DNA of 64,000 bases from Gammaproteobacteria bacterium. Its GTDB lineage: Bacteria; Pseudomonadota; Gammaproteobacteria; Eutrophobiales; Eutrophobiaceae. The notes beneath the pieces were generated by a model that saw only the letters and a program-made list of their open reading frames with translations, did not search any database and had not been told where the DNA came from. A program made the translations under genes and the position numbers. Shown here piece by piece: positions 12,301 through 31,702 of the stretch. Position 1 is the first letter of the stretch, and each line of letters begins with the position of its first letter. The stretch spans positions 2,588,104 to 2,652,103 of the forward strand of contig OZ244846.1 of NCBI GenBank assembly GCA_965220815.1, read 5' to 3'.

Positions 12301-15300
12301 GTCACCAGGTAGGCCCTGTCCTGCCGCAGCCGGCCCTTGATCAGCGGTGGGGTTGTCACCACGATCTTGCCGAGGTGACGGGCCGAACGCATGAACGACA
12401 GCGCAGCGCCCGCTTCGGCCAGCGGCCAGCGGCTGTGTATGATCGGTTTCAGTTCTCCCGAGGAAAGACGCCCAATCACACTCCTCAGAACCTTTCCTAC
12501 GTGGGCCGGTTCCGTCTTTTTGAGAACATCCAGTTCCAGTATATGGTAGGGCACGTCCGGTCGCAGGGCCGCCATCTCGTCTTCGCTCAGGATGTCCCGC
12601 CTGGCCATCTCCACGAAGCGGCCACCTTGCCTGAGACAGGACAGGCTGGCATCTATAAAGCCTTCCCCCGTCAGGCTGTTCAGCACCACGTCCACACCCT
12701 TGCCGCCCGTCGCCTCCATGATCTCCTGCCCGAACGCGATAGTGCGGCTGTCGAATATGTGCCGGACGCCGAGCGAACGGAGATAGTCCTGTTTCGGTGC
12801 GCTTGCGGTTGCGAAGACTTCCGCTCCTGCAGCCTGCACCAGCTGGATGGCCGCCAGCCCCACGCCGCCCGCACCGGCATGGACCAGGACCCGGTCGCCG
12901 GCCTTAAGCCCGGAGAACTCGAAGGACAACGCGGCCGACACGAATGCGCTCGGTACCGTTGCCAGTTCGGAGACGGAGAATCCCGCCGGCGCGGGTGTTA
13001 CCAGTTCCTCATGCGTAATCATTTGCGGCCCGAACGCGCCGAACCCCAGTCCCACAATATGGTCGCCGGGCGAAACGGTCGATACCTCGGCGCCGGTCTC
13101 AAGGATGTGGCCGCACATCTCCCTGCCCAGCAGCCCTTCCTCGATGAAGCCGAGCGAACGGAACACGTCCCAGAAGTTGAGCCCGGCAGCGTCCACCGCG
13201 ACGCGTACTTCCCTGGGTTCCAGGGGGCGCGCCGGCAACGGCTGTACGCAGGGCCTGTCGAACACGCCGGCCGGGTCCGGCGCCAGCACCCATTCAAGAC
13301 CTTCCGGAAAGGCCAGCCGTTCCCCTGCGTCTTCGGCCCTGACCAGGCGCGCCGTCCGGCGCTGACTCCTGCGGTAGGCGATGTGATTCTCGGTGTCGGG
13401 ATACAGGAGTTCATTGACCAGGTCGGGCGCGGGCGCCATCATGTCGGGGTCCAGGTCAATCATCCTCGGTTGCAGGTGAGCCGCTTCCCGCGCCACCGCC
13501 TTGCCCAGGCCCCACAGGGCCGCACCGGCCGGTTCCCCGCCGATCTCCCGCTCCAGCACCTGCGCGCCACGTGTGAAGAACCACATGCCCTGAGCGGGTG
13601 TTTTATCGGAGTCGGCCACTCCTTGCACCAGTGCGAGCGCACTCGCCACTGCGCGTTGCACATCTGCCGCCATTTCCCCGGTCGTTGCCTGCGGGCCGTG
13701 ACCGTCAAGTCCCATGAGATGTACTACACCATTGAACGGCACATCCGCAGGCAGGCTTTCCACCAGCGCCTGCCACCATGCGCGCCGTTCCGGTTCCACC
13801 TTGGCCGGAGAAATGCCGGGACCAGCCGCTGCCGGCCTGCCGTTGATGGCCTGCGGTTTTTGGGGCGCCTCACTGCCCGCCAGTATGACCTTCTGGTTGC
13901 GCGCCGCCAGGTCGGCTGCGAGTTGCTGTGCCAGTCCACCCTGGTCCGCCGCCAGAATCCACGCGCCGGGGGCTTCTTTTACCTGCGCAGGACCCTGGGC
14001 CACGATCACGCCCTTGTCCGGAATCCTGGTTGTATCGGACTCATCCACGCCCAGCACCACGGCTTCGGTAAAACCCGCGTCACCAAGCGCCCGGCGCCAC
14101 ACCGCCGGGTTCGCCAGGGCGTGATGCGGGCGGTAGTCGTCGGCAAAGCGCCACCAGCCGTCCAGTTGCCCGAAGGTCAGATCCATCCAGCCCAGGCCGC
14201 TGAGGTTCTCCAGAGCCACCAGTTGTCCCGCCGGCGCCAGGAGGTCCAGGCAGTGCCCCAGCGTTTCTTCCAGGTAGCGCGTAGCGTGCAGGACGTTGGA
14301 TGCGATCAGCAGGTCATAGCCGTGGGAGTCGAAGCCCTGGGCGACGGGGTCTTTCTCGATATCCAGCGGACGGTAATCGATGCATCCGCCGCCGTCGCCG
14401 AAGCGGGCCTCCGCTTCCGCGAAGAAGCCTGCGGAGATATCCGTGTAGGTATAATCGAACCATCTTTCCGGCAGTTCCGGCAGGACGGTGTTGGTCGCCG
14501 ATCCGGTGCCTGCCCCGATCTCCAGCACCCGCAGTCGCCGTCCTTCGGGCAACCCGGCTACAAGCGACCGGACTGCATCTCCCAGCAAGCGGTTCGCGGC
14601 GCGCGCCACCGGCGCTTTCAGGTACAGGTCGGCCGCGGTAGGCTCGCCGCTGCTGAACAGGAGGGTCAACGGGTCGGCCTTGCCGCGCAGCACCTCCCCC
14701 AGGGCGCTGCCGGAGCGCCGGAACAGCCCAATCTCGGTCTGGCCGTGCGCATAGCGTCCGGCCATCTGATCGGCAAACTTTTCAGGATCCTCCGGCATGT
14801 GTTCAGGTAACGGATCTCCGGGCCCCAGGAGAACGGTGAAACCGTCGTCCGTCTCCGCCACTACCCCGGATTTGGCAAGCATTTCGAACATGCGGCGGAA
14901 CAGGCGTTTGTGCTCCTCAGTGACGTTCAACCGTTGTTGCAACGCCTCCGGGTCTACGGTCTCACCTGCCTTGCGCTGCCAGCCCAGTTCTTCCAGGGTT
15001 GCCAGCGCGCGCGTGCGCGACCACCGCTCCAGGTCCTGCAACAGGGCATCCCTGCTCTCGGGCGGGACTCCTGCTTCTGTCAGGTAATCAGTGAACAACT
15101 GCGATTCGGCCGCAATGGTTGCCGGACCCGGGAAGAAGTCCGCGGCTTTCATTCCGGGGGGGAGGGCGTGATCGCGCCACACGATTTCGTACAGCAGGTC
15201 CTTCACACCCTCGACTGCCGAGAGCAGCGCAGCCCGTGTTGCGCGCTTTACCGTGTAACCGTTAATACCGCCGATTAGAACCCCGTTTCCATCGTAAATG

Positions 15301-18300
15301 CGCATTTCACTGCTCAGGACCTCCGGCGGCTCACCCGTATCCTCTTCCTGCTCCCGGGAAACCTGGTTCATACGCACGTGACAGAGCGCCCGCTCCGGCA
15401 ATTTTTGCGTAAGCCATAATCGCTCCCAGCCGAAAGGCAGGTAGGTAGTTGTGCTTTGCGTTCCGGTCAGGCCGCGCGCAATGCCGACGACCTGAAAACA
15501 GCCGTCCAGTAATAGTGGATGAATATCCATACCGCTCTTGCCGAGAACTGCCGGGAAAGACACCTCACCCAGCGCCTCGCCCTGCCGTGACCAGGCTCTC
15601 CCAAGGGTGCGGAAAGACGGGCCGAGGTCAACACCGGTGCCTGCCCTGGCGCGGTAATAGCCCGCCACGTCCACCGGACTCAGTCCGGACTTCAGGCTTT
15701 CCGGGTCGATGCGCCCGGCGGCTTCCGGGACCGGCGCATCCGCCGACACGCGTCCCTCTACATGTACCGTCCAACCCTCTTCATTCCCCTTGCTGAATAT
15801 CTGTACGGGACGTGACAGCGCCTGCTCGGAAGCATCGAGCAGTACCTGTAGCTTGCGGCTGTCCTTATACTCATCTTTGCCGGCCTCATTTTCCTGGGCG
15901 CTCTCCTCCGGGAATACCAGCGGGTTGTGCAGTTGCATGTCTTCAACTACTACCGGCCAGTTCCCTTCACAGAGTAGTGCAGAGGCCGCCATTGAGCCGT
16001 ACAGCGCCCCCGGCGCCACCACCCGGTTGAAAACCCGGTGATCGTTCAGCCACTCCGGATCGGAGCGAAACAGTTCTGTCTCGAAGGTGATCTCGCCACG
16101 CGCAGATTCATGACGCCCGCCCAGCAAGGGGTGATCGGCGCTGCCGCGCCGTTGCTTCGTCGTCTCTACCCAGTGGCGCCTGCGTTGAAACGGATAACCG
16201 GGTATTGAAATGCGGCGCCGCGACTCTCCTGCGAAAAGCCCCGCGAATCGAATCGGAAGCCCTGCCTCGTAAGCTGCCGCGGCCGCTTCCGTAAAACTGC
16301 CGCCTGCAGGCGCCGCGCCGTTGCCTGACGGCCTTTGCAGGCTTGACAGCACTGTCGGCGCCGGTGTCTGTGCCGACTCCGGCCAGGCCGAGAGCGCCAT
16401 TGGGGCCAGCACCGCGTGGGGGCCTATCTCCAGCACCAGGTCCACCCCGAGTTCCGCTAATGTCTCGACCCCGCGGGCGAATGCCACCGGCTCCCGGGCA
16501 TGCCGCTTCCAGTATGCCCCGTCCAGCGCCTGGCCTGTCTCCACCACCCGGCCTGTCAGGTTGCTGACCACGGCCAGGGAGGGAGACTTAATTTGCACGC
16601 CGTCCAGGGAGGCTTCCAGTGCGTCCAGCGCCGGCTCGACCAGGGCGCTGTGGAATGCTTTTGCCGTGTTCAGCTTCCGGGCCCGGATCCCCTCCGCTTC
16701 GAGCTGCTTCATGATGGTTTCAACTTCGTCGACCGGCCCGCTGATCACCTGGTGGGTTCCGTTGTCCGCCGAGATGTTCACCCCGCTTCCGGCAGACGCT
16801 GCGTTCGCTGCCCGGACTTCGGCTGCCACCTGCGACGCCGGCGCAAAAACCGCGGCCATGGCACCCTGTTCGGTTGCGGACAGCAGGGCGCCGCGTGCGC
16901 AGGCAAAGCGCATGCCGTCCTCCAGGTTGAATACTCCCGCGGTGTGCGCCGCTGCCAGTTCCCCGACACTGTGTCCCATCACCACCCCGGGCCGTATGCC
17001 CACGCTCGACCAGAGCGCCGTCAGCGCGCATTCCAGCGCGAACAGGGCGGGTTGTTCCCATGCCGTATCACCCAGTTTCCCTTCCGTCCCGGCGCGGCCG
17101 AACATGACGTCCAGCAGGGAGGTTCCTCGTTCATCCCGGAATACCGTCTCACAGTGATCCAGGACTGCCCGCGCCACCGGTTCGTTCTCGTACAGCGCCT
17201 GCCCCATACCGGCCCACTGGCTTCCCTGGCCGGTGTAGACAAACGCGACCTTGTTCACTGAGCGGGACCTGGCCGCCTCACCGGTTTCAGCCAGTTCGCC
17301 GAGTTGTTCCTGCAGAGATCCGGCATCGTGGAAAACAATACCTGTGCGGTATTCGAAATGGCTCCGTCCCGCGCCCGCAGTCCACGCCATGTCCGCCAGC
17401 AGGGGTTCCGGTACGGCGCCGTCCGACGACATCTCCCCGGCCTGTTCACTGAGCCATGACAGGTAGCGCCCGGCAAGTTCCCTGAGCGCATGCTCCGATT
17501 TGCCTGATAACGGAAGGAAACGGATCTTGCGCGGTCCCATTTCCTGCTCCGGTAACGGCAGGTGAGCTACGTCCGAGGGCGGAGAAACCGCTAACATCCG
17601 CGCACGGCCCGCCGCCTGGTATTCCTTGCTTGGCGCCGTATCCGCAGGGACATGCTCCTCCAGCACGATATGTGCGTTGGTCCCGGATATCCCGAAAGAG
17701 TTCACCCCCGCCAGGCGGGGTCTTCCGTTGCGGCGCGGCCACTCCGTTAAATCCGTTGTAACCTGTAACGGCAGGCGCTCCCAGTCGATAGCCGGGTTGG
17801 GATCATGGAAATGCAGGTGTTTAGGAATCACACCCTGCTTGATGGCTAATGCGGCCTTGATCACGCCGGCAACCCCTGCAGCCGATTCCAGGTGGCCGAC
17901 GTTGGTTTTCACAGAGCCGGTCAGCAGCGGATGATCACTTACGCGCCCCTTGCAGTAGACTTCGGCAACAGCATTAATCTCAATCGGATCGCCCACGGTG
18001 GTTCCGGTCCCATGGGCCTCGAGGAAGTCCACGTCCGTTGCCGGGACGCCCGCCTGCGACAGCGCCTCGTCCATGACCTGAACCAGCGCCGGCGTGTTGG
18101 GAACCGTGAGTCCCACGCTGGCCCCGCCGTGGTTCACCGCCGAGCCCCGGATGACCCCCCAGATGCGGTCGCCGTCCGCCTCCGCCTCATTCAGCCGCTT
18201 CAGCACCACCACCCCGCAACCTTCACCCCGTACATAGCCGTTCGCTGACGCATCGAAGGTCTTGCACTGCCCGTCAGGGGACAACATCATCGCATCCGCG

Positions 18301-18956
18301 CGCAGTTCGTAGATGCGGCTGTTCAGCAGGGCCTGCACGCCGCCGGCAAGGGCCAGGTCCGCCTTGCCCTGCTGCAGGTCCGCCACCGCATCGTGGATGG
18401 ACACAAGGGATGAGGCGCAGGCGGCGTCAACCGCTTTCACCGGACCCATCAGGCCCATTACGAAAGCCACCCTGCCTGCCGCTCCGTTCAGGTTGGTGCC
18501 GCTCAGGGCATAGAGACAGGAGGCCGCATCGGCAGGTTTGCCTGACTCCAGGACCAGCATCCGGTATTCGTCGTTGCTGATCCCGGCGTACACGCCGGTG
18601 CGGCTGCCCTCCAGGCTGCCCGGGTCTATCCCCGCGTCCTCGAGCGCCTGCCAGCTCGTTTCCAGCATCATCCGTTGTTGCGGGTCCAGCAGTTGTGACT
18701 CGACCGGAGAAATCCGGAAGAACGTTTCATCGAACTGATCTATGTCGCTGACGAAAGCGCCGAATCGACAGCCTTCGTTCAAATCCGAGCCGTCAGGGAA
18801 AAGTTCTCCGATGCGCCCGACGCCCGATCCCGGAACACCCTCGGTCACAGCATTCTCTCCGGCTTCGAGCAGGCGCCAGAAAGAGGGGATATCCGGCGCG
18901 CCGGGGAAACGGCATGCCATGCCCACTATCGCGATCGGTTGTGCGGTCCCGGTCAA
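9393..18956 (-). CDS. supA: Type I PKS KS-AT-DH-cMT-ER-KR-ACP-KS (SupA-like, probable methyl-branched fatty acid synthase)
   Basis: KS1 DAACASS/HGTGT/KTNVGH; AT GQGSQW/GHSVG/AFHS; DH DHRVFNRVVAPG; MT VLEIGAGTGS; ER HAGAGGVG; KR TGGLGGIG; ACP LGMDSL; KS2 ELNCASS/HGAGS/KTNIGH. Architecture and neighbours match the sponge-symbiont sup operon as recalled; the PKS call is certain, the sup name is less so. Confidence 0.9.
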   Translation of the reverse strand: MTGTAQPIAIVGMACRFPGAPDIPSFWRLLEAGENAVTEGVPGSGVGRIGELFPDGSDLNEGCRFGAFVSDIDQFDETFFRISPVESQLLDPQQRMMLETSWQALEDAGIDPGSLEGSRTGVYAGISNDEYRMLVLESGKPADAASCLYALSGTNLNGAAGRVAFVMGLMGPVKAVDAACASSLVSIHDAVADLQQGKADLALAGGVQALLNSRIYELRADAMMLSPDGQCKTFDASANGYVRGEGCGVVVLKRLNEAEADGDRIWGVIRGSAVNHGGASVGLTVPNTPALVQVMDEALSQAGVPATDVDFLEAHGTGTTVGDPIEINAVAEVYCKGRVSDHPLLTGSVKTNVGHLESAAGVAGVIKAALAIKQGVIPKHLHFHDPNPAIDWERLPLQVTTDLTEWPRRNGRPRLAGVNSFGISGTNAHIVLEEHVPADTAPSKEYQAAGRARMLAVSPPSDVAHLPLPEQEMGPRKIRFLPLSGKSEHALRELAGRYLSWLSEQAGEMSSDGAVPEPLLADMAWTAGAGRSHFEYRTGIVFHDAGSLQEQLGELAETGEAARSRSVNKVAFVYTGQGSQWAGMGQALYENEPVARAVLDHCETVFRDERGTSLLDVMFGRAGTEGKLGDTAWEQPALFALECALTALWSSVGIRPGVVMGHSVGELAAAHTAGVFNLEDGMRFACARGALLSATEQGAMAAVFAPASQVAAEVRAANAASAGSGVNISADNGTHQVISGPVDEVETIMKQLEAEGIRARKLNTAKAFHSALVEPALDALEASLDGVQIKSPSLAVVSNLTGRVVETGQALDGAYWKRHAREPVAFARGVETLAELGVDLVLEIGPHAVLAPMALSAWPESAQTPAPTVLSSLQRPSGNGAAPAGGSFTEAAAAAYEAGLPIRFAGLFAGESRRRISIPGYPFQRRRHWVETTKQRRGSADHPLLGGRHESARGEITFETELFRSDPEWLNDHRVFNRVVAPGALYGSMAASALLCEGNWPVVVEDMQLHNPLVFPEESAQENEAGKDEYKDSRKLQVLLDASEQALSRPVQIFSKGNEEGWTVHVEGRVSADAPVPEAAGRIDPESLKSGLSPVDVAGYYRARAGTGVDLGPSFRTLGRAWSRQGEALGEVSFPAVLGKSGMDIHPLLLDGCFQVVGIARGLTGTQSTTTYLPFGWERLWLTQKLPERALCHVRMNQVSREQEEDTGEPPEVLSSEMRIYDGNGVLIGGINGYTVKRATRAALLSAVEGVKDLLYEIVWRDHALPPGMKAADFFPGPATIAAESQLFTDYLTEAGVPPESRDALLQDLERWSRTRALATLEELGWQRKAGETVDPEALQQRLNVTEEHKRLFRRMFEMLAKSGVVAETDDGFTVLLGPGDPLPEHMPEDPEKFADQMAGRYAHGQTEIGLFRRSGSALGEVLRGKADPLTLLFSSGEPTAADLYLKAPVARAANRLLGDAVRSLVAGLPEGRRLRVLEIGAGTGSATNTVLPELPERWFDYTYTDISAGFFAEAEARFGDGGGCIDYRPLDIEKDPVAQGFDSHGYDLLIASNVLHATRYLEETLGHCLDLLAPAGQLVALENLSGLGWMDLTFGQLDGWWRFADDYRPHHALANPAVWRRALGDAGFTEAVVLGVDESDTTRIPDKGVIVAQGPAQVKEAPGAWILAADQGGLAQQLAADLAARNQKVILAGSEAPQKPQAINGRPAAAGPGISPAKVEPERRAWWQALVESLPADVPFNGVVHLMGLDGHGPQATTGEMAADVQRAVASALALVQGVADSDKTPAQGMWFFTRGAQVLEREIGGEPAGAALWGLGKAVAREAAHLQPRMIDLDPDMMAPAPDLVNELLYPDTENHIAYRRSQRRTARLVRAEDAGERLAFPEGLEWVLAPDPAGVFDRPCVQPLPARPLEPREVRVAVDAAGLNFWDVFRSLGFIEEGLLGREMCGHILETGAEVSTVSPGDHIVGLGFGAFGPQMITHEELVTPAPAGFSVSELATVPSAFVSAALSFEFSGLKAGDRVLVHAGAGGVGLAAIQLVQAAGAEVFATASAPKQDYLRSLGVRHIFDSRTIAFGQEIMEATGGKGVDVVLNSLTGEGFIDASLSCLRQGGRFVEMARRDILSEDEMAALRPDVPYHILELDVLKKTEPAHVGKVLRSVIGRLSSGELKPIIHSRWPLAEAGAALSFMRSARHLGKIVVTTPPLIKGRLRQDRAYLVTGGLGGIGCAVAGWLADHGAGTIVLNGRREPDATAMETIRAIRERGVAVWVELADMTDMAAVDNMLARMEQELPPLGGVIHSVGVLSDGALTNQTWERFEEVLWPKIMGGWQLHRATAHLDLDFFILFSSRVGVMGNPGQANHAAANAFLDQLAGHRRALGLPGQAIAWGAWSDIGEAAEQRDRIERQRSALGGRWFTPQQGLRALDRLVRQDATTAVVMSMDWSVYEEAVDDRPPLLEDLLSRDSDDKAKDATSPDDLLASLREAPATTHEELLASFLQQEVQAVLRLQSTPEPKVGFFDLGMDSLMAVELRNRLNRAFSGEYKASNTVVFDYPDIAALAGHLAQELVEVIGTPAPQVQPRTQPETQPKPKPEPSLRNGDDGIAIIGMACRFPGAADLPAFWRLLEAGADAVTDGRQDSGSWEGVAGDPAQSDSALRRAGFIEGIDLFDARFFGISPISARATDPQHRLLLEASWQALEDAGINPDDLRGSNTGVFAGVASSEYRDLMLAAGSSISYVGTANSMAVGGVSFKLGLTGPAVPVELNCASSLVSVHHALTSLRQGEVNLALAGGVNTVLSPGKTGEMAELGMLSKEQRCKTFDASADGFARGEGCGMLVLKRLAEAEADGDRIWAVLRGAAVNQNGPSAGPTAPNGPAQERVIEAALTQAGITPAEVDYLEAHGAGSALGDPIEVQAAAAVYGNGREEAYPLLIGSVKTNIGHLETAAGIAGIIKVVLAMNRGVIPKQLHFRDPNPNLEWDRLPVRVVSSMVDWPRHPERPPRAAISSFGISGTNAHVVVEGYTDPPAEKDNLLDGQARLLPLSGKSGEALRDLALRYLSWLDEGTGETPSDGSISSELLADMAWTAGVGRSHFAYRKGIVFNDAASLREGLEALAQTDTASLTPVEPSGAFRPSGDGPEAQGQDLPVVVAAQAYEAGETVAFAELFAGENRRRISLPGYPFQRRRYWIE

Positions 18957-21542: not shown

Positions 21543-22829
21543 CTATAACGCGCCCAGGCCCAGTTTCCTGCATTGCCGTTCAACTACCTTTTGTACGCGC
21601 TGCAGCGCGGGATAGTCGCCGTGTTTTTGCTGGAATGTCTTGATCACCGGAACAACCTCCTGGTGGACCCTGTCCGCTAATTCCACAAGGAGTGTCTGCA
21701 GGTACCCGAATTTGATGTCCAGTGACGCCGCCAGTTTTTGCCAATGGACCGTTTGAATGTTCCCCGGTATGTGCTCCTCGCCGATGGCCAGTGCGAGTTT
21801 CGGGTCAATTCGCTCGATGGCCCGTGTACAGACCAGGTCGTAGAAAGGGGCCAGCCGGATAGCGCCGTCTTTATGGTAGAGCAGTGACAGGTTCTTGGCG
21901 TGGCCGTCCGAATTGCCGGCAAGGTAGTTGAAGATCTGCCAGCGTAGCAGTTGCTCGGCATCCAGCGCAGGCTCGGTTGAAGCATTTCTGAGCAACCGGA
22001 AACACTCGCTGAAACTGACACCGCCGCCCGTCTCGTACTTGCGCTCTCTGCCAACTCCCAGTGCCTGACAGAAGTCTTCCTGGTGCAACCGGCGCACCTC
22101 GCCGCCGGTTGTGCTCTCGCGATCGTAACGTTTAATGACCAGGTACTCGTGTGCATGCTCATTAACGTGCAGGTAATGAAACTCGACTGAAGCCGTATGT
22201 AAACCGACCCGCCGCGCCAGGTCCGTCAACACGGCCTCATACGCGGGCACATGCCGATAGTCGGTCATTGCAAATTTGAGGATGTGACTCGATGGGGCCT
22301 CCCCCAGCGGTAAATGGAATTGACTGCCGCGGAGCAGGACCGGACATTTTTCCTGGGCGCCGGCCAGGGAAAGCCGCGGGAATTGGGATGCGGTCATTCC
22401 GCTACGGGGAGCGGCATAGATTTGCCCTTTGCGGAGAACCAGGTCCTGGAACGACTCCACTGTCAAATCCTGATAAACCTCCCCGGCATCCGGCTCGCGA
22501 TCATCCGGCAGAATTGACAGCGCGCCGGCGCATTCTCCCCCGATCGCCCTTAGCAGGTCAAAATCCGAGTCCGGTATTTTCAGGTCACGCATAATACGTT
22601 CCCTTACCCGCCCTTCAGGCAGCAGGTTGGCAAAGAAACGGTGGGCAAGGGCGTCTTCGGGCTGATAAGGGTCGGCGTTCAGCGGCAATGATATGGAAAT
22701 AGCGAAACCATGACTGCCAGACAGCCAATCGTCACAATATTGAAAACCTATCTGGTTTGTTGCGTTGCGCCGGAGGAAACCGACCAGCTGATCTTCATGC
22801 CATAGGTGGAGAGTGTCAGGATCGGTCAT
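21543..22829 (-). CDS. hipA: HipA-family kinase toxin
   Basis: FFANLLPEG, RLSLAGAQEK, RLHQEDFCQALG, GNSDGHAKNLS and RLAPFYDL. Confidence 0.95.
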   Translation of the reverse strand: MTDPDTLHLWHEDQLVGFLRRNATNQIGFQYCDDWLSGSHGFAISISLPLNADPYQPEDALAHRFFANLLPEGRVRERIMRDLKIPDSDFDLLRAIGGECAGALSILPDDREPDAGEVYQDLTVESFQDLVLRKGQIYAAPRSGMTASQFPRLSLAGAQEKCPVLLRGSQFHLPLGEAPSSHILKFAMTDYRHVPAYEAVLTDLARRVGLHTASVEFHYLHVNEHAHEYLVIKRYDRESTTGGEVRRLHQEDFCQALGVGRERKYETGGGVSFSECFRLLRNASTEPALDAEQLLRWQIFNYLAGNSDGHAKNLSLLYHKDGAIRLAPFYDLVCTRAIERIDPKLALAIGEEHIPGNIQTVHWQKLAASLDIKFGYLQTLLVELADRVHQEVVPVIKTFQQKHGDYPALQRVQKVVERQCRKLGLGAL

Positions 22830-23091
22830 CTGGCGTCTTCGATGCCTGGCGCAGGACGCCTCGTGGCGCTATATACACGTCCAGACCCATTGTATTCAGG
22901 GTGCCTAAAACCTTGCCGATTTCTGCCGTGGGTTTGCCGTTTTCAAAGTCGGAAAGAAATCCTATGCTGATGTTGGTTAAACCAGCCACCCTGACCTGTG
23001 TCAAGTGGCGGGATTTTCTATGCCGGCGGGCCGCCTGCCCAAGTTCGGCAGGAGTTCGGACCTGCTGGAGTTCAGGAAATATTTCTGCCAT
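22816..23091 (-). CDS. hipB: HipB-like XRE HTH antitoxin
   Basis: LGQAARRHRK...LTQ...FLSDFENGKPTAEIGKVL; overlaps the hipA start. Confidence 0.88.
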   Translation of the reverse strand: MAEIFPELQQVRTPAELGQAARRHRKSRHLTQVRVAGLTNISIGFLSDFENGKPTAEIGKVLGTLNTMGLDVYIAPRGVLRQASKTPDDRS

Positions 23092-23409
23092 ATCAAACTC
23101 TGTAATTTATACGTACATGCAATTTTTTCACAGATTAATGGAATTTGCAATATATTTTGCACGTACATAATAATTATCGGATAGAGATGATTATCATGAG
23201 AGAATTTCTACGACCGTGCGTATTTTATACCATACAACGCAAGATACGGCCTGGCCCATCAACCACTGAACCAGGTACGCCGGCAAATCCGGGGCGGTTC
23301 AGAATTAAACAAGCAACGGTTTCTTGTTATAATTGTACCAACCGCAGCTTGTAGAAAATCCAGGACAACCCTCTCTCCATAATATATGCAACATTATGAA
23401 ACAATTTGG

Positions 23410-23455
23410 AATGGCTGGGGGCAGAGGATTCGAACCTCTACTGGCGGAGTCAGAG
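23410..23455 (-). repeat. att site: 46-bp direct repeat of the tRNA-Gln 3' part
   Basis: Identical to 31627..31672 (AATGGCTGGGGGCAGAGGATTCGAACCTCTACTGGCGGAGTCAGAG). Confidence 0.95.
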
Positions 23456-23589
23456 GAAACCTTTCTGCGTCGGTAAGTCACTGAAATAGTTAATTGATTA
23501 TAAGATTCGGCAAATTTGTTGTGACTTTAGTTGTGACTTTTTTGTTGTTTTGATACCCATCCCTGCTTCCAGCACATCTCTTCTCAGTA

Positions 23590-23976
23590 ATGAGCAATCC
23601 TGAAACAACAAAAGCTTACAAAGTTATTGAGGCAGGACAACTTGTACAGAAATTTACTGTGCTGATAAATGGAGGCGCTTCGGTTGCAATATTAGCTTTT
23701 ATTGGTAATGTTTGGTCTCCGGGTAATATTGCGCCACTTACAATAATCTTCTTATCTATTGGACTTGCTGCCTTTTCTCTGGGTGTATTATCTGGGGCAA
23801 AATCCGCGCTGGAGAATTACTTGGCAGGTACCTTCAGCCTTGCAGATGTTAAAGATCTTTCCCGCCTTCATGCTGACCGTTCTGTAAGAGCTAGTATTAT
23901 TTCTCTCGCACTATTCTTTTTAGGAATGTGTGCATCAATCATAGCAATCCTTGTTCACTTTTTATCTGGCCCCTAA
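23590..23976 (+). CDS. Hypothetical membrane protein (about 3 TM)
   Basis: 128 aa, LINGGASVAILAFIG followed by further hydrophobic helices; AT-rich. Confidence 0.65.
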   Translation: MSNPETTKAYKVIEAGQLVQKFTVLINGGASVAILAFIGNVWSPGNIAPLTIIFLSIGLAAFSLGVLSGAKSALENYLAGTFSLADVKDLSRLHADRSVRASIISLALFFLGMCASIIAILVHFLSGP

Positions 23977-25369
23977 AATTTGTCTGCCGGCAACGGGAAA
24001 CTAGGGCAGGCTGTTAACCCATCTTTAACATAGGTCTTTACGAACTTGTTGTATATCAGCCAGTTACGAAGATCTGGCCAGCCGAGTGGCACTACATGTG
24101 GACGCCGGGGTCCAGGTCGAAGGGTTCAGACGAGGTTTTTGCGGACACCTCCCGGTGATGAATCAATGCCCAGCGCATCGTAGATTGCCTGCTGCGGCGG
24201 CTCGGCCAGGGTGGCCTTGCGCACGTGCAGGGTGCGCCCGTCATCCCGGCGGAAGGTGGCGGTGATGCGTTGTTGTCCTGCCAGGATGCGGCGCAGGGTG
24301 GTCCAACTGGCGTGTTCGCCAGCCTTACGCAGGCGGGTCCGGATCACCTGCACCAACTGGTAGGCGATGACGGTGATGAACAGGTGCCCTTCGGCGCGTA
24401 GTGGTTTGTGGTGGTAGATGGGACGCAGGCCCAGCTCGGACTTTAACGAGCGGAACACGGCCTCGACGTCGGTGAGCATGAAGTAGGTGCGCCACAGGGT
24501 GTCCTCGTCCCAGTCGGTCCGGTTGCTGCGCAGGCAGTACACGCCCGGGTGGGTGAGCAGGGAGCCGGGCCGGGCGTTGCGGGTGAAGCGCACCGCCCTG
24601 GCGCGTTGGCCGGTCTGGTCGGTCTCGACGGTGATATCGTAGTGCTGGGCGATGCCGTGGCTGTTTTCCTTGATACGTCCGATGCGCTGGTGGACGTGGT
24701 CGATACGTTTGCGGGTGCGCGGTCTGGCCAGTCCCTCGTTAAGTTGCGTGAGGGCGGTCTCGAGGCGTTGGGCGAAGCGCTCGGCGATGCCTTGTTCCTT
24801 GGCGGCGCGGGCTTCGGAGTAGCAGTACAGGCGCACTTCGCCGGCGTCCTCATCGAGCACCCGCTGCAGTTGCACGCCCTGCTTTGAGGCGGTCTCGATG
24901 CGCACCGCGCCCTCGGGGTCGAACTGCCGGGTGCGTTCGCGGCTGACCACCAGGTAGCGGTAGCCCTGCTCGCGCAGCCAGGCCAGGCGGTCCTCGGTGG
25001 CGATGCCGCGGTCCATGACCACCAGGGCGCCGGGCGGCGTATCCAGTGCGGTAAGCATGTCGGCCAGGGTGTGGTGTTCGCGCACGTTGCCGGCGAACAC
25101 CTGCGAGCGGCGCACGAAGCCGTGCGTATTCCGGTTGAAAGTGAACGCGTATTCCGGTTCAAAGTGAACACCGATTCCGGTTGAAAATGAACGCGGATTC
25201 CGGTTCAAAGTGAACACCGATTCCGATTGAACGTGAACACTTTCCGGGCAGTACCGGAATCGGTGTTCACAACCCCGGAATCCGCGTTCACGTTGAACCG
25301 GAATCCCCCGCAACGCATGGGACTTGTAACCCGGTGGTACGTTGTTCCTTTTTTTGGGAGCAACCTGCC

Positions 25370-26923
25370 ATGTCCAACAAGAGAACGACCATGCGTAAAC
25401 TACGCGAGATACTACGGCTCCGGCTGCAAGCCGGCCTGTCCATCCGCGCCATCAGCCGCAGCACCAAGCTGAGTGTCGGCGGGGTACAGAAACTCCTCAG
25501 CCGGGCCGAGGCCCTGGGCCTGACCTGGCCCTTGCCGGTCGAGCTGGACGATGCCCGCCTGGCCGCGCTGTTCTACCCTGGCGCCGATACCGACGCCAGC
25601 CCGCGCCGCGAGGCGCCGGACTGGGCGGCGATCCACGAGGAGTTGAAGCGCCCCCACATGACGCGACAACTGGTCTGGGAGGAATACACCCAGCGCTACC
25701 CGAACCGGTGTTACGGCTACTCCCAGTTCTGCGACCGTTACCGCGACTGGCTGGCCCGGCAACAGCGCACCATGCGCCAGACACACAAGGCCGGCGAGAA
25801 GTGCTTTGTGGACTACGGCGGGGATACCGTGCCCGTCATCGATGCCGGCACCGGCGAGACACAACCGGCACAACTCTTTATCGCGGTGCTCGGCGCATCG
25901 GACTACACCTTCGCCGAAGCCACCTGGACCCAGACCCTCCCCGACTGGCTGGCCAGCCATACCCGGGGCATGACCTACTTCGGCGGCGTCCCCGCCGCCA
26001 TCGTCCCCGATAACCTGCGCAGCGGGGTGAGCCGTGCCTGCCGCTACGATCCCGACATCAACCCCAGCTACCAGCAATGGGCCGAGCACTACCAGACGGC
26101 TATCCTGCCGGCCCGCCCCCATAAACCCCGTGACAAGGCCAAGGCCGAGCAGGGCGTGCTGCTGGCGCAGCGCTGGATCCTGGCCCGCCTGCGGCATCAT
26201 CAGTTCTTCGCCCTCGATGAGTTGAACCGCCATATCGCCACCCTGCTTGACGAGCTTAACCACCGGCCCTTCAAGCGCCGGCCCGGCTCGCGCCACGCGG
26301 CCTTTGAGACCCTTGATAAACCGGCCTTGAAGCCGTTGCCCCCACAGCCTTACGAGTATGTCCACATCAAGCCGGTCACCGTGCACATCGACTACCACGT
26401 GCTCTACCAGCAACACTACTACTCCGTGCCGCACCAGTACGTCGGCGAGCGGGTCGAGTTACAGGCATCTGACAGCTTGATTGAACTCTACTTCCACCAG
26501 CGCCCCATCGCCACCCATGCACGCCGGGACGGGTACGGCTTCACCACCGACCCGGCCCACATGCCCGAACGCCACCGGGCACAGCAGCAATGGTCCCCCG
26601 AGCGCCTTAAGCGCTGGGCTGCCCAACTCGGCCCTGACGTGCACACCTGGGTCCGCCACCAACTCGAACGCCGGGCCCACCCCGAGCAGGCCTACCGCAC
26701 CTGCCTGGGATTGCTGCAACTCAGCAAACGCTATCCCGCCAGCCGCCTCAACGCCGCCTGCCAACGGGCCAACCAGGCCGGGCTCGTGCGCCTCAAACAG
26801 GTCACACACCTGCTGGAGTCAAACCAGGACCGGCTGCCTGATACCCCTGACGCAGACACCCTGACCACCCCCACGCTGCCCCAGGACCACGAGAATGTCC
26901 GCGGGCCGCACCACTTCAACTAA
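25370..26923 (+). CDS. istA: IS21 transposase IstA
   Basis: N-terminal HTH, FVDYGG, IVPDNLRSGV and KPRDKAKAEQGV (DDE). Confidence 0.95.
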   Translation: MSNKRTTMRKLREILRLRLQAGLSIRAISRSTKLSVGGVQKLLSRAEALGLTWPLPVELDDARLAALFYPGADTDASPRREAPDWAAIHEELKRPHMTRQLVWEEYTQRYPNRCYGYSQFCDRYRDWLARQQRTMRQTHKAGEKCFVDYGGDTVPVIDAGTGETQPAQLFIAVLGASDYTFAEATWTQTLPDWLASHTRGMTYFGGVPAAIVPDNLRSGVSRACRYDPDINPSYQQWAEHYQTAILPARPHKPRDKAKAEQGVLLAQRWILARLRHHQFFALDELNRHIATLLDELNHRPFKRRPGSRHAAFETLDKPALKPLPPQPYEYVHIKPVTVHIDYHVLYQQHYYSVPHQYVGERVELQASDSLIELYFHQRPIATHARRDGYGFTTDPAHMPERHRAQQQWSPERLKRWAAQLGPDVHTWVRHQLERRAHPEQAYRTCLGLLQLSKRYPASRLNAACQRANQAGLVRLKQVTHLLESNQDRLPDTPDADTLTTPTLPQDHENVRGPHHFN

Positions 26924-26936
26924 CCGGAGAGACACC

Positions 26937-27686
26937 ATGACATCAACCACACAAACCCTGACACGCCTGCGCGACCTGCGCCTGCCCGGCATGGCAACCG
27001 CCCTGACACAACAAACCGAACAGCCCGCCACCTATGACCCCCTGCCGTTCCTCGACCGCCTCGCCCTCTTAGTCGAGTCCGAGTGCCTGCAACGGGAACA
27101 ACGCAAACAGGACCGCCTCATCCGCCAGGCGCACTTCAAACTGCGCGCCCGCCTCCAGGATATCGATTACGAACACCCCCGCAACCTGCAGCGCACACAA
27201 CTTACCCAACTCGCACAGGGCGAGTGGCTGCAGCGGGCCCACAACCTGCTCATCACCGGCCCCTGCGGCTCAGGCAAAACCTTTATCGCCTGCGCCCTCG
27301 GCCACCAGGCCTGCCGGCTAGGTGTCTCCACCCGTTACTATCGCCTCGCCCGGCTGCTCCTTGCCCTCACCCAGGCCAAGGCCGACGGCAGCTACCACAA
27401 ACTCCTGCACCAACTCGCACGCACCGGACTGCTTATCATCGACGACTGGGGCATGGACACCCTCAATACCGCACAGCGCCATGACCTCATGCACATCATG
27501 GACGACCGCTATCACACCGGCTCCACGCTCATGGCCAGCCAGTTGCCCGTCGACCAGTGGTATGCCACCATCGGCGATAACACCCTTGCCGATGCCATCC
27601 TCGACCGGCTTATCCATAATGCGCACCGACTGACCTTGAAGGGGGAATCCATGCGAAAACAACAGGCGTCTATTGACTCAGCGTGA
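26937..27686 (+). CDS. istB: IS21 helper ATPase IstB
   Basis: GPCGSGKT, LLIIDDWG and ADAILDRLIHNA...GESMR. Confidence 0.95.
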   Translation: MTSTTQTLTRLRDLRLPGMATALTQQTEQPATYDPLPFLDRLALLVESECLQREQRKQDRLIRQAHFKLRARLQDIDYEHPRNLQRTQLTQLAQGEWLQRAHNLLITGPCGSGKTFIACALGHQACRLGVSTRYYRLARLLLALTQAKADGSYHKLLHQLARTGLLIIDDWGMDTLNTAQRHDLMHIMDDRYHTGSTLMASQLPVDQWYATIGDNTLADAILDRLIHNAHRLTLKGESMRKQQASIDSA

Positions 27687-28781
27687 ACACTTGAGGTAAA
27701 AAACACAAACACGCCATGCGTTGCGTTAACAGGTGTTCACAATGAACCGGAATCACTGTTCACGTTCGACCGGAATCGGTGTTCATATTCGCCGGAATAC
27801 GCAAGCCGCTGGCATCGAGCACCAGCCCCAGGGTGAGCAGCGGGCAATCGGTGCGCTTGTCCTTGGCGTGGCCGCGGCGCGCCTTGGGCTGTTGGGCCGC
27901 CTCGCCCTCGAAGTAGGTGTTGCTGAGGTCATAGAGGGTGACGGTGGGCGCCAGCGTGAACAGGTCCATGGCCTGGTCGAACAGGTGCTGCTCGATGGCG
28001 TCCCGGTGCGCCATGAGGGCATCGGAGGCGCGGTACAACTGTATGGGATGCTGAGTCTCAAAGTCCACCCCCAGCAGCTCGCCCAGGGCGCTGCGCTCAC
28101 GCAGCCAGCGCGCCGCGGCGGCCTCCGAGCCGGGTTGCGCCAGACGGGCGACAATCGAGCCGAGCGCCGCCGCGCGCAGGGACGGGCCGATGCCGAGTGC
28201 TTCCAGCCGTGCCCGCAGGCCGAGTTGCTCGATGGCCCACAACGCAACGTGCTCGACCCCCACCGAGCGCGGGCGCACCAGTGCCAGCGAGCCCACGTCT
28301 ACCGCCTGCAGGTCCCGGCCCGGCGGCGTCTCCCGGTGTGCGTCCCGGTCGCGGGCGAGCAACTGTTCGGCGATGTGCCGGGCATGGGTCTCCAGCGCCG
28401 GCGGACCATCGGCGTACAGGGCCATCTGACCGGCGCGCAGCGCGTCGATGCGCTGGCACAGTGCGGGCCAGTCCTGGCGGGCGACGTCGAAGTGGCGACC
28501 GAGATTGAGCAGCGTGCGCTGACGCACTTTCTCGCCGATGCGTTCGGAACGCACCAGGCGGTGGGTGTAGTAGGCCTCGCCGGTGGTGGTGGCGCGGGTT
28601 TTGGTGCGCCGGATGAACATAGGGGAGAGGATACCGGGGGTGGCGGAGCGAGTCAACAAGAAAATAAATATTATGGCACTACACTACTCCCCCCTTACCA
28701 TAAATCAATGGGTTACGACCGAAAACCCGCCAAAATCACCCTGATTCCCCGTCCCGACAGGCGGAAAATGTTAAACTTGGG

Positions 28782-29192
28782 TTAATAGAGTGGGTCAATT
28801 CTGATGGAAGAATTTTAGGCCAATACTGTTATTATGCTGATGGGTCGTGTGTTTATCTCGTCAGTCTAGGCATTTTATGTGAGTCTGGTGCTGAGTACCC
28901 ATCAATACTGAATTCCAACACTGGCGCCGTGGATGTAAGGTTGATTTGTGGCGATAAGTACCAAGGCGAGAATGTATTTTTTATTAAACCATTTGACGAT
29001 GTAGATAATATTGTATTGACGGCCAGTACTATTGGTTTTGCAGTCGCAATGGAGGAGGGTACATTCAAAGTTGTACGTTTTAGTTTATTGGGTTCTACGC
29101 ATGCAATAAAAATGATGCAGTTGGGGGCAGAAATCATAAGAAAGGAAAAATCAGAAAATCAGCAAGATGTTAAATCTGAAGAATATTTATAG
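28782..29192 (+). pseudogene. Probable 5'-truncated hypothetical gene
   Basis: Frame of ORF 28929..29192 stays open back to the IS1634 junction (LIEWVNSDGRILGQYCYYADGSC...) with no start codon there; the left IS flank has an in-frame TAG at 24002. Confidence 0.5.
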
Positions 29193-29361
29193 TTGCTACG
29201 AAATCAAATATTTCTCCTAAGACGAATTTTGATGACCTTCAGGATGTAGCGACTATTTCCTTGTCGTTATTAATCTTTAGCTAAATACCGACGTCCTCAT
29301 CCGAATTATATTTTTTATGCTATTATTGCCAATATCAGGCTATAGCGGAGAAATATATATC

Positions 29362-30180
29362 ATGGTGTCACTAGCAGGGATTGGAAAATCCTATCGAAAC
29401 AAACTCAGTATGGTTTTAGAGCATAATTTTGCCGTAATTACAGTGGTTCGGGTTGCAGAGACATTGAATGTGCACCATCAAGAAGCTGGCAGACTACTAT
29501 CTCGTTGGTGTAAAAATGGCTGGTTGAAAAGACTGACGCGTGGTGCCTACGTACCAGTGCCATTAGAGGCGACTAGCAGTGCTGTAGTTGCAGAGGAACC
29601 TTTACTGATCGCCAATGAGTTGTATGCGCCTGGTTACATCGCGGGTTTTAGCGCGGTCAAACATTGGGACTTCTCTGAACAAATTTTTGAAACAACGACC
29701 TACTTTACGACACGCAAAATTAAAAATAGATATCCTTTCCACGGTGGTGTGAAGTACCAACTAAAAACCATCAAAGCATATAAATTATTCGGATTAAAAC
29801 CACTTTGGTTTAGATCCAAAAAAGTCATGATAAGTGATCCAACAAAAACTCTGGTTGATATTCTGGATGATCCCAAGATCGTGGGTGGGATATCCATCGT
29901 TTGTGATGTACTCGCAGAATACATGGAATCAGCGCATTATGAACCAGATAAATTAATCACATATGCAAGGAAAATGAACAATAAAACTATTTTCAAACGC
30001 TTCGGCTTTTTACTTGAAACCAGATTTTCGCTTGACAAAAAATTATCAGAACAATTACTGACAAACGTCTCTGAAAGTTACTCCTATCTTGATCCCACAA
30101 TCCAGTCACATCATAGCATTGCAAAATGGCGGTTAAAAACATCAGCGTCTTGGAAAGACGAATATGATAGAAAAAAATGA
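29362..30180 (+). CDS. AbiEi-family antitoxin/transcriptional regulator (type IV TA)
   Basis: wHTH with GWLKRLTRGAY, YIAGFSAVKHWDFSEQI and ISDPTKTLVDILD; overlaps the downstream toxin gene; GGAG before the ATG at 29362. Confidence 0.85.
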   Translation: MVSLAGIGKSYRNKLSMVLEHNFAVITVVRVAETLNVHHQEAGRLLSRWCKNGWLKRLTRGAYVPVPLEATSSAVVAEEPLLIANELYAPGYIAGFSAVKHWDFSEQIFETTTYFTTRKIKNRYPFHGGVKYQLKTIKAYKLFGLKPLWFRSKKVMISDPTKTLVDILDDPKIVGGISIVCDVLAEYMESAHYEPDKLITYARKMNNKTIFKRFGFLLETRFSLDKKLSEQLLTNVSESYSYLDPTIQSHHSIAKWRLKTSASWKDEYDRKK

Positions 30181-31411
30181 AGTCCTGAGACTAGCAAACG
30201 CGCTGGGTCTGCGCCCAGACACAGTGGAGAAAGATTATGTCCTAGGTTGGATTTTATATGGGATATACCACCATGAAAGAATATCGTCATGGGTGTTTAA
30301 AGGTGGAACAAGCCTGAAAAAGTGTTTTTTTGAAACCTATCGGTTTTCAGAAGATTTAGATTTTACTGTCACAGATCCAAGCCAATTAACGCAAGAATTT
30401 TTACAATCAGCATTCGATGAAATCACTAAGTTTCTCTATGATGAAGTCGGAATAGTATTTTTTCCGGACAGATTCAATTTCAAGATTATTCCTAAAGATA
30501 ACGGTCAAGTATCTGTACAGGCGAAAATTCATTATAACGGTCCATTGCGAAGAACACTGGGAGTTGCATCAATTAAGTTGGATTTAACTACCGATGAAAT
30601 ATTAGTACTAAGTCCAGTCCGTAAAAGTGTCCATCATCCCTATACTGATAAACCCGATGATGGTATTTACGTAAATTGTTATGCCTTTGAAGAGGTGGTT
30701 GCAGAAAAGATACGCGCTCTCAGCGAACGTGCACGACCGCGTGATCTATATGATGTAGTCCATTTTTTCCGTAACCGTGACATGATTCAAGACTCAATAT
30801 TAGTATATGAAGTGCTACAAAAAAAATGTGACTATAAAGCCATTGAAGTCCCAACATTTCAGCAAATTGTGGCACACGAAAAAATTGACGAGTTAGAAAC
30901 TCAATGGGAAAATATGTTGGCTCATCAATTAGCCCATTTACCGCCGATGCAGGCCTTTTGGGATGACTTGCCACTATTTTTTGAATGGTTAACAAACCGG
31001 TTAGATGTATCGCCAACCACGAGTAATTATGCCAGAGCCGGTGAGACATTATTTCAACCTGGGCGTGTAACTAGTGCCTTCACCGTTGACAGAATTTTGC
31101 AGAATATCCAGTTTGCTTCAGCTAATCGTTTATGTGTCTATGTGCAATATAATAATAAGTATCGCACTATTGAACCCTTATCATTTCGAACGTCTAGTGC
31201 TGGGAGCCGTTTGTTTTATGGCTATGAACGAGAAGCAGGTCACGTCAAGGCTTATACCTTGTCAAAGATACAATCCGTTGATATTACAGAACAGTCGTAT
31301 ATTGAAAGATATCCGGTCGAAATCAGCTCAACCGGTACAATTTCAATGCCGCCAATTAGAAGAGTGATTCAAACTAGTCAACATAGTCGAACAACACGTC
31401 GCTCACTTTAA
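30164..31411 (+). CDS. AbiEii/AbiGii-family nucleotidyltransferase toxin with C-terminal WYL-like domain
   Basis: VEKDYVL, FKGGTSL, RFSEDLDF and EKIRAL...RPRDLYD. C-terminus IQFASANRLCVYVQYNNKYRTIEPLSF...LFYGYE...VKAYTLSKIQSV follows the WYL pattern. Confidence 0.88.
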   Translation: MIEKNEVLRLANALGLRPDTVEKDYVLGWILYGIYHHERISSWVFKGGTSLKKCFFETYRFSEDLDFTVTDPSQLTQEFLQSAFDEITKFLYDEVGIVFFPDRFNFKIIPKDNGQVSVQAKIHYNGPLRRTLGVASIKLDLTTDEILVLSPVRKSVHHPYTDKPDDGIYVNCYAFEEVVAEKIRALSERARPRDLYDVVHFFRNRDMIQDSILVYEVLQKKCDYKAIEVPTFQQIVAHEKIDELETQWENMLAHQLAHLPPMQAFWDDLPLFFEWLTNRLDVSPTTSNYARAGETLFQPGRVTSAFTVDRILQNIQFASANRLCVYVQYNNKYRTIEPLSFRTSSAGSRLFYGYEREAGHVKAYTLSKIQSVDITEQSYIERYPVEISSTGTISMPPIRRVIQTSQHSRTTRRSL

Positions 31412-31628
31412 ACGTGGTTCTACCTCACCTGAACGCGCCGCCGTCAATACCATAAAATGAAAGACCAGTTTTGTCACAAGGCTGGAACTGGATTGATCTA
31501 CCGCTTCCAGGGTCGTGCTGACTTAGTGATAGGGCGGGGCCTTTAAATACTGGCGCGGCTTGCCGTTCATGCGGACTCGCTGCATCCGGGATTTTGCCGC
31601 GCGCCCGTTTCGTGCTATCTTTTTGAAA

Positions 31629-31702
31629 TGGCTGGGGGCAGAGGATTCGAACCTCTACTGGCGGAGTCAGAGTCCGCTGTCCTGCCGTTAGACGAGCCCC
31701 CA
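31629..31702 (-). tRNA. tRNA-Gln (anticodon CTG)
   Basis: TGGGGGC/GCCCCCA acceptor stem, GCGGA-CTCTGAC-TCCGC anticodon arm, GGTTCGAATCC T-loop and encoded CCA; 74 nt. Confidence 0.97.

Follow-up and report, generated by a model that had tools for sequence, protein, structure and literature searches.

What is a WYL domain doing at the C-terminal end of a nucleotidyltransferase toxin? The question is raised by two co-directional open reading frames (ORFs), 29317..30180 (+, 287 aa) and 30164..31411 (+, 415 aa), in a 64,000-nucleotide stretch of gammaproteobacterial DNA from contig OZ244846.1 (the window, as we call the whole stretch analyzed here). To judge from its sequence, the locus is a toxin-antitoxin/abortive-infection module of the AbiE (phage-defense) type, with an AbiEi antitoxin gene followed by an AbiEii nucleotidyltransferase (NTase) toxin gene, and we are highly confident that it is an AbiE pair whose toxin carries a true WYL domain. 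A first-pass annotation of this DNA had seen the fusion and read it as a one-component sensor-effector, in which phage- or damage-derived single-stranded DNA (ssDNA) or RNA switches the NTase on. Our analysis bears out the architecture and leads us, tentatively, to another role for the domain.

The two genes form a compact cassette. The likely abiEi start is the Met at 29362, since the PADLOC AbiEi model starts at residue 21 of the 287-aa form and homologs align from that Met. The AbiEi protein matches PADLOC PDLC02271 (E 7.3e-81) and, in Pfam, AbiEi_1 at 23.1 bits (cut-off 22.2); AbiEi_4, at 22.9 bits, stayed under its cut-off of 25. It is predicted to be a winged-helix protein with an antitoxin domain, translationally coupled to the toxin, whose gene it overlaps by 17 nt. 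Residues 1-395 of the toxin align with the 396-position PADLOC model PDLC02317 (E 5e-146), and the AlphaFold model of the whole toxin has a mean pLDDT of 88.5 and a pTM of 0.87. The coupling to AbiEi, the AT-rich island DNA, and the adjoining tRNA gene that the first-pass annotation described were all found again: GC content is 0.38 (0.385/0.383 across 29-31 kb, with flanks of 0.61 and 0.60), and the tRNA-Gln gene lies 217 nt downstream of the toxin stop, on the opposite strand.

The catalytic half of the toxin is a complete AbiEii core, as had been claimed, with all NTase motifs present, including D-L-D. Pfam PF08843 matches aa 29-265 (E 2.4e-38, 132.9 bits; cut-off 22.5), and the motifs read K46-G-G48, R60-F-S62-E-D64-L-D66, L-D140-L, K182, and R193-D194..Y196-D197. 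In an alignment of the window protein with 33 homologs from public genomes (43-65% identity), K46-G-G48, R60..D66, D140, K182, and R193-D194..D197 are invariant in all 34 sequences. The motifs published for TglT/MenT3 are hG[GS], R-x-S/T-x-D-x-D, h[DE]h, Lys, and Asp (PMC7205606), and those of the window toxin appear to correspond to the TglT/MenT3 NTase motifs 1, 2, and 2a together with DUF1814 motifs 3 and 4. The phosphorylated residue of TglT is S78, within R76-x-S78-x-D80-x-D82 (PMC7205606); S62, invariant in the 34 sequences, occupies that phosphoacceptor position by sequence pattern. T49 of K-G-G-T was considered as a phosphoacceptor and rejected, because the TglT acceptor lies in motif 2, which corresponds to S62 here.

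Structural searches agree with the motifs. With the whole model as the Foldseek query, ranks 1-13 and 15 were DUF1814 toxins (MenT4, MenT3/TglT, JHP933, and MenT1), led by MenT4 (6y56, E 5.6e-9), with a probability of 1.00 and E-values of 5.6e-9 to 7.8e-7 across MenT4, MenT3/TglT, and JHP933. Other whole-model matches included PafBC, CapW, BrxR, and DriD, along with weaker core matches to CD-NTases, TdT, and similar enzymes. A phmmer search of the whole toxin against Protein Data Bank (PDB) sequences returned only MenT4 (E 1.5e-4).

The C-terminal part required more indirect evidence. Pfam WYL (PF13280) gave no match to the window toxin, whether the full sequence was scanned (E ≤ 1) or just its last 142 aa (E ≤ 10), and an NCBIfam scan of the toxin found nothing. 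Among the 34 aligned sequences, however, Pfam detected AbiEii in 34 and WYL PF13280 in 21, with a best E-value of 4.3e-10; that Pfam misses the window protein reflects the limits of detection for a copy this divergent. The drift can be followed in the alignment: distant members carry a textbook WYL motif (NRLCV.L.Y....R.IEPYSLRRT..GN.LLYA.....RSYR.DRIQG...F.PRY.), whereas in the window subclade it has drifted to LFYGY and KAYTLSKIQ, the canonical W-Y-L being L-F-Y in the window and the R/R/R at 362/365/368 being K/T/K. Because Pfam is blind to the window sequence itself, the assignment rests on the homologs and on the fold.

The fold evidence is consistent across methods. The AlphaFold model ends in a helix (aa 310-320) followed by five strands (aa 323-378), and the domain modeled alone (aa 293-399) reached a pLDDT of 87.9. 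A profile of the domain run against PDB sequences found only PafBC (E 0.0011) and PafB/PafC (E 0.12). In Foldseek, the domain alone drew WYL proteins exclusively among the listed matches to rank 29, including the Cas13d accessory protein WYL1 (6oaw) at E 0.1. In VIA-align, ranks 1-14 were all WYL proteins (Z 8.5-11.8; rmsd 2.0-5.1 Å over 73-92 residues at 9-15% identity), and generic Sm/Hfq/SH3 barrels came next at Z ≤ 7.5; the best match was PafBC (6sj9_B, Z 11.8, rmsd 2.0 Å over 80 residues), followed by ssDNA-bound CapW (9c5g, Z 11.2), DriD (8tp8, 10.8), and BrxR (7qfz, 10.7). The comparison of the C terminus with WYL and SH3-like folds that the first-pass annotation had proposed as its own check thus came out in its favor, and the WYL-like C terminus lies where it had been placed. 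Alignment and model together indicate that aa ~310-378 are a genuine, divergent WYL domain.

What follows the barrel sets the window protein apart from most of its relatives. The segment immediately after it, whose E386 is invariant in 34/34 sequences, is kept in the window. In most family members there then comes a Ser/Arg-rich linker and a zinc-finger-like motif, C..C-x(10-25)-HK-x(4-10)-C. Of the 34 aligned members, 23 have this tail, as do at least 29 of the 54 ORFs of 380 aa or more that we extracted and scored by motif. By the same scoring 25/54 are tail-less, including four loci with too little downstream DNA to judge and one (L032) with a variant tail that escaped the motif. In another three of the 25 (L007, L053, and L078) the motif lies out of frame downstream, right after the apparent stop, which points to probable frameshifts, from sequencing errors or decay. 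The nearest full-length relative (P0003, which is the copy on G017:C55, in a genome of the same genus) is 459 aa long and 92% identical and keeps the CxxC...HK...C tail. In the window, homology to G017 ends at nt 31389 and unrelated codons follow, so the window toxin is a 3'-truncated allele; the low-GC DNA stops where the G017 homology stops, and the tail motif is absent in every frame of the window DNA downstream of the toxin. By this comparison, the window allele has lost an ancestral, strongly basic C2H2-like zinc-finger tail of ~50 residues. Since the cut spares the WYL barrel and the conserved PIRR segment, the product is similar to natural ~400-aa forms, and an identical toxin allele is found in a second genome of the genus (G002).

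The fusion itself is not new, given that it was catalogued in 2014, is covered by a full-length PADLOC model, is widespread, and bears a WYL name in UniRef. The main text of Makarova et al. 2014 (PMC4012209) reports that WYL domains combine with an "AbiGII-like nucleotidyltransferase (DUF1814)" and draws the ligand-sensor inference. Supplementary file 6 of that paper has a class "AbiGII-like-nucleotidyltransferase+WYL+C2H2" of five proteins: Afipia sp. 1NLS2 (486 aa), ACD_79 (476 aa), Gammaproteobacteria bacterium MOLA455 (407 aa), Nocardioides sp. CF8 (393 aa), and Schlesneria (333 aa). The zinc-finger tail was accordingly rejected as a new observation, "+C2H2" being already in the supplement. 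Both the architecture and the inference of the first-pass annotation are twelve years old; its remark that no characterized example was known agrees with our literature searches, but the fusion and the sensor idea had been published. Defensome papers that name both AbiEii and WYL cite them separately and, in the text available, do not discuss the fusion, and the word WYL is absent from the available text of a 2026 AbiEii preprint (10.64898/2026.01.19.700257). With the window copy, a known and biochemically uncharacterized architecture gains one more member, a truncated one.

How common is this architecture? A word-indexed protein search gave 6,890 proteins at E ≤ 0.001 among 8,000 scored candidates, the best 120 of which are 373-472 aa long and 58-92% identical, one with a UniRef name beginning "WYL domain-cont..." An exhaustive search of 50%-identity representatives gave 4,115 proteins at E ≤ 0.001 and 337 at E ≤ 1e-30, and among the 150 best representatives listed, 63 align through the WYL part (query end ≥ 385). 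Of 151 representatives, 77 have a complete NTase core: 42 with WYL, 26 short, and 9 with other extensions. In a quick tree of these 77 cores, short forms are mixed in among those with WYL, and well-supported branches require 10 or more changes; some of the "short" entries, such as P0123 (275 aa, 86% identical), are probably fragments, and we draw from the tree no inference of single versus multiple origin. Among species-representative genomes, a relative is encoded in at least 573 of 602 candidate stretches, and the 80 loci that we kept span phyla including Pseudomonadota, Calditrichota, Bdellovibrionota, Desulfobacterota, Acidobacteriota, Nitrospirota, Latescibacterota, Gemmatimonadota, Omnitrophota, Atribacterota, Actinomycetes, and Verrucomicrobiota; at least one member (L050, a 475-aa toxin with the zinc finger) is in a cultured, non-pathogenic strain, Aromatoleum toluvorans Td21. 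The AbiEii-WYL form is thus widespread, occurring in hundreds of genomes and many phyla. The genome that contains the window also has a second, distant AbiEii-like ORF (L082; G000:C1:1752429-1752971), with 27% identity over aa 21-200 in an open frame of 325 aa.

Two features of these loci bear on function. An AbiEi gene lies directly upstream of the long-form toxin in 53 of the 54 loci with room for one (a count that includes the near-identical L001; the exception is L063). Because the antitoxin is retained, the module stays two-component and its regulation does not depend on the WYL domain alone; the "one-component" part of the earlier proposal does not hold. The neighborhoods are mixed. Among 14 other loci chosen for long flanks on both sides, the cassette lies inside a type I restriction-modification (R-M) operon in two (L034 and L044); others have as neighbors TOTE and insertion sequence (IS) elements (L008), an integrase (L013), a TIR protein (L040), an IS3 element (L052), a transposase (L017), or a HipA gene downstream of the cassette (L006), and the rest sit in ordinary housekeeping neighborhoods. 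The expectation of a defense context thus found support in part of the family, with several loci plainly among housekeeping genes, and the scattered, partly defense-linked distribution is typical of mobile toxin-antitoxin cassettes. In both R-M loci, hsdR and hsdS are upstream of the cassette, and L044 also has hsdM downstream and a DUF6119 gene upstream.

A mechanism can be sketched from the closest studied systems. MenT toxins and the AbiEii of Streptococcus agalactiae add nucleotides to tRNA 3' ends, and the latter is a pyrimidine-specific tRNA NTase that is neutralized by AbiEi-induced autophosphorylation (10.64898/2026.01.19.700257). By extension from its CHARACTERISED relatives (MenT1/3/4 and S. 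agalactiae AbiEii), the free window toxin would nucleotidylate tRNA 3' ends and so halt translation, and AbiEi would bind the toxin and induce an inactivating autophosphorylation, most likely on S62 of R-x-S-x-D-x-D. The WYL domain, together with the zinc finger where there is one, would act as an accessory single-stranded nucleic-acid-binding module that lends an NTase core of unusual acidity its affinity for RNA, its choice of target, or both, and it would not replace the antitoxin.

Slightly favored among the readings, although we hold it with less than even confidence, is that the WYL domain is an accessory module that binds single-stranded nucleic acid as the substrate of the enzyme. The closest precedents are TePif1, the PIF1 helicase of Thermotoga elfii and the only enzyme-fused WYL protein studied, in which the domain serves the enzyme as an accessory module that binds its ssDNA substrate, and WYL1, the accessory protein of Cas13d, which binds single-stranded RNA (ssRNA) with high affinity. 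The charge distribution is consistent with such a role: over the 34 members the mean net charge is −9.9 for the NTase core and +3.8 for the WYL part, and the linker and zinc-finger tail of the 23 tail-bearing members add +12. The WYL part has a conserved basic cluster formed by R334 (33/34), R342 (32/34), and K/R362 (34/34). Among 50%-identity representatives, the core is more acidic in WYL-bearing forms (−7.1, n = 42) than in short ones (−2.6, n = 26; Mann-Whitney p 0.0008, uncorrected for relatedness). The retained antitoxin also fits, since regulation need not hang on the WYL domain alone. Several points weigh against this reading. The nearest solved structures belong to ligand-sensing transcription factors, and three were determined with ssDNA bound (DriD 7tzv/8tp8 and CapW 9c5g); the contrast in charge comes from comparing related sequences and is correlative, and some of the "short" representatives are probably contig-end fragments; the basic tail is not essential, given that tail-less forms are common; the ligand affinity of the window domain may differ, with K/T/K at 362, 365, and 368 where most of the family has R/R/R; and our literature searches found no experimental study of any AbiEii-WYL member.

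The same structural neighbors are the best argument for reading the domain as an allosteric sensor, which would bind phage- or damage-derived ssDNA or ssRNA, or a nucleotide signal, and turn the NTase on, so that AbiE would sense infection itself, for example through a ligand that blocks AbiEi binding or autophosphorylation. The characterized WYL proteins topping the fold search are all ligand-gated regulators: ssDNA is an allosteric regulator of DriD (PMC9186387), PafBC is triggered by ssDNA (PMC11804915), and another WYL factor perceives cyclic di-GMP (PMC11880434). The conserved basic cluster would fit a sensor as well, part of the family keeps company with defense and mobile genes, and the trigger of AbiE is not known, the S. 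agalactiae system having protected against 0/32 coliphages (10.64898/2026.01.19.700257). On the other hand, the known WYL regulators are dimers with extra C-terminal domains that the window toxin lacks, the retention of AbiEi speaks against a self-contained switch, the very basic appended zinc finger resembles an affinity module, TePif1 uses its domain on the enzyme's own substrate, and several surveyed loci lie in housekeeping neighborhoods. We regard a sensor of this general kind as possible, and its narrower form, an ssDNA/RNA-gated switch in which a ligand from phage replication stops AbiEi-induced autophosphorylation or opens the active site, as rather unlikely. A protein-protein role, with the domain serving for oligomerization or for docking AbiEi or a phosphatase rather than for nucleic acid, might account for the invariant E386 segment after the barrel, which is otherwise unexplained, and the dimerization of WYL1 involves regions adjoining its WYL domain; yet known WYL domains bind nucleic acids or nucleotides, the basic cluster suits an anionic ligand, and the AbiEi proteins of the WYL-bearing family are of ordinary length and domain content, all of which make this reading very improbable.

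A different kind of doubt concerns the window copy alone, which might be a non-functional leftover of a degraded island whose architecture says nothing of present function there. The toxin is cut at nt ~31389 with the loss of ~50 C-terminal residues, and the surrounding island, in which no integrase was detected, carries IS21 and other IS elements. A plus-strand scan upstream of abiEi found no sigma-70-like promoter (region-wide there were 6 matches, with 8.2 expected by chance), and an operator search in the same place found only a 9-nt AT palindrome. Set against this, both reading frames are intact, the truncation leaves the WYL domain and PIRR segment in place and a product of natural length, and G002 keeps an identical protein. 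Relative to the G017 copy, dN/dS is 0.09 for AbiEi and 0.13 for the toxin (0.10 for its NTase part and 0.17 for its WYL part). Such low values in all parts mean that the genes have been under constraint (purifying selection), although the toxin value pools the time before and after the truncation, which cannot be dated from it. On balance, decay of the window copy seems improbable, and the substrate-binding role remains the one that we lean toward for the family.

The setting of the cassette is consistent with a mobile origin (Table 1). The two copies of a 51-nt direct repeat (50/51 identical, with a 46-nt exact run) and the borders of matches in related genomes together place it at the tRNA-proximal end of an ~8.2-kb island. 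Among 15 related genomes that match the DNA of the tRNA-Gln and oxidoreductase genes, 12 match only rightwards of ~31621-31629, two match from 31557, and G002 alone matches throughout. The island holds a 128-aa ORF, a DDE transposase, IS21 (istA/istB), another transposase piece, and the abiE cassette. A Pfam scan found no integrase domain among the scanned island ORFs, with small or broken remnants not searched for, and it is on this account that we call the island decayed. An intact cassette is found in G017 (L090; G017:C55, 6161-9000), as an ~2.7-kb low-GC insert that starts 18 nt after tpiA-secG-tRNA-Leu(GAG), with no integrase near it. Closely related cassettes beside two different tRNA genes in one genus imply that the two-gene cassette moves as a unit.

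The rest of the island has a history of its own. A genome of the same genus (L001/L083) has a nearly identical island that lacks the IS cluster at 24017-28794. Within it, two minus-strand transposase pieces, at 24126-25313 (DDE_Tnp_1) and 27760-28659 (no Pfam match), flank the IS21 genes istA (25334-26923) and istB (26895-27686), an arrangement that suggests a single IS interrupted by the IS21. The stretch at 28794-29217, left of the DNA that G017 also carries, is AT-rich and common only to L001/L083; it contains an 87-aa ORF (28929-29192) with no Pfam match. Just beyond the left repeat is a minus-strand hipBA-like pair (21543-23091), with a 428-aa HipA (HipA_C, E 2.5e-52) and a small upstream ORF (22816-23091), and a giant minus-strand ORF of 3,187 aa spans 9393-18956.

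Table 1. Coordinates in the window of the abiE cassette, the parts of its toxin, and the island around it
Feature	Position	Strand	Basis or remark
Left 51-nt direct repeat copy	23405..23455		attL-like; far end of the island
Decayed ~8.2-kb tRNA-Gln island	23456..31621		Direct repeats; Pfam scan of ORFs; genome comparison
AT-rich abiE cassette common to the window and G017	29217..31389	+	blastn, 91.8% nucleotide identity
abiEi antitoxin/regulator gene	29362..30180	+	272 aa from Met at 29362; ORF open from 29317
abiEii-WYL toxin gene	30164..31411	+	415 aa; 3'-truncated allele
DUF1814/AbiEii nucleotidyltransferase core	30164..30991	+	aa 1-276; Pfam, motifs, Foldseek
Variable linker	30992..31090	+	aa 277-309; poorly conserved in 34-sequence alignment; pLDDT 65 for aa 281-290
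Divergent WYL domain	31091..31297	+	aa 310-378; predicted helix and five-stranded Sm-like barrel
Conserved post-WYL segment	31298..31363	+	aa 379-400; Y..YPVEI..G..SMPPIRR; (near-)invariant columns
Truncation junction	31389..31411	+	Codon ~409; then six unrelated codons (TTRRSL) and stop
Right 51-nt direct repeat copy	31622..31672		3' 44 nt of tRNA-Gln plus 7 nt; attR-like
tRNA-Gln(CTG)	31629..31702	-	ARAGORN; Rfam RF00005, 57 bits

The wider interest of the locus lies in its family, as the window copy itself adds little beyond one more truncated member. The 2026 S. agalactiae study explains how the AbiE toxin is kept off (10.64898/2026.01.19.700257), which leaves the in vivo activation of AbiE/MenT-type toxins to be accounted for. 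A large natural AbiEii-WYL subfamily offers a route to the trigger, if the WYL domain senses, or to target selection, if it binds substrate. A gated switch, if it proved true, would give AbiE its first defined trigger and would be the first case in which a WYL domain was shown to control an enzyme directly and not a transcription factor.

Among known systems, the AbiEi/AbiEii (DUF1814-COG5340) pairs of S. agalactiae and Lactococcus are like the window pair in gene order, in the overlapping upstream antitoxin gene, in Pfam families, and in NTase motifs, and they have a Ser/Thr at the phosphoacceptor position, as does the window toxin, so that by analogy the same mechanism would be expected here. 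They differ in that characterized AbiEii toxins consist of the NTase core only; the window toxin extends beyond the core with a linker and a WYL domain, followed in its ancestor by a zinc finger, and its core is acidic. The Ser/Thr phosphoacceptor in motif 2 that goes with type VII toxin-antitoxin systems has its predicted counterpart in S62. MenT1, MenT3 (TglT), and MenT4 of Mycobacterium tuberculosis and JHP933 of Helicobacter pylori are the best fold matches to aa ~1-290 (6y56, then 6j7p and others, 4ok0/4o8s, and 8an4), and MenT3 (TglT) has the R-x-S-x-D-x-D motif in common with the window toxin; identity is 11-21%, and these toxins lack the WYL domain and the zinc finger. The class listed by Makarova et al. 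2014 (PMC4012209) has, by its listing, the same three-module architecture as the window family, its five proteins not having been aligned with the window protein; that class is a catalogue entry without experiments, and the window copy is a truncated allele without the tail, its WYL domain falling below Pfam detection. The regulators PafBC, DriD, CapW, and BrxR provide the best fold matches to aa 293-399 but are dimeric transcription factors with helix-turn-helix (HTH) and WCX-type domains, whereas the window domain is fused to an enzyme. In TePif1 and WYL1, finally, a WYL domain works with a nucleic-acid enzyme and binds single-stranded nucleic acid, the partner enzymes being a helicase and an RNase, respectively, rather than an NTase, and WYL1 being a separate protein.

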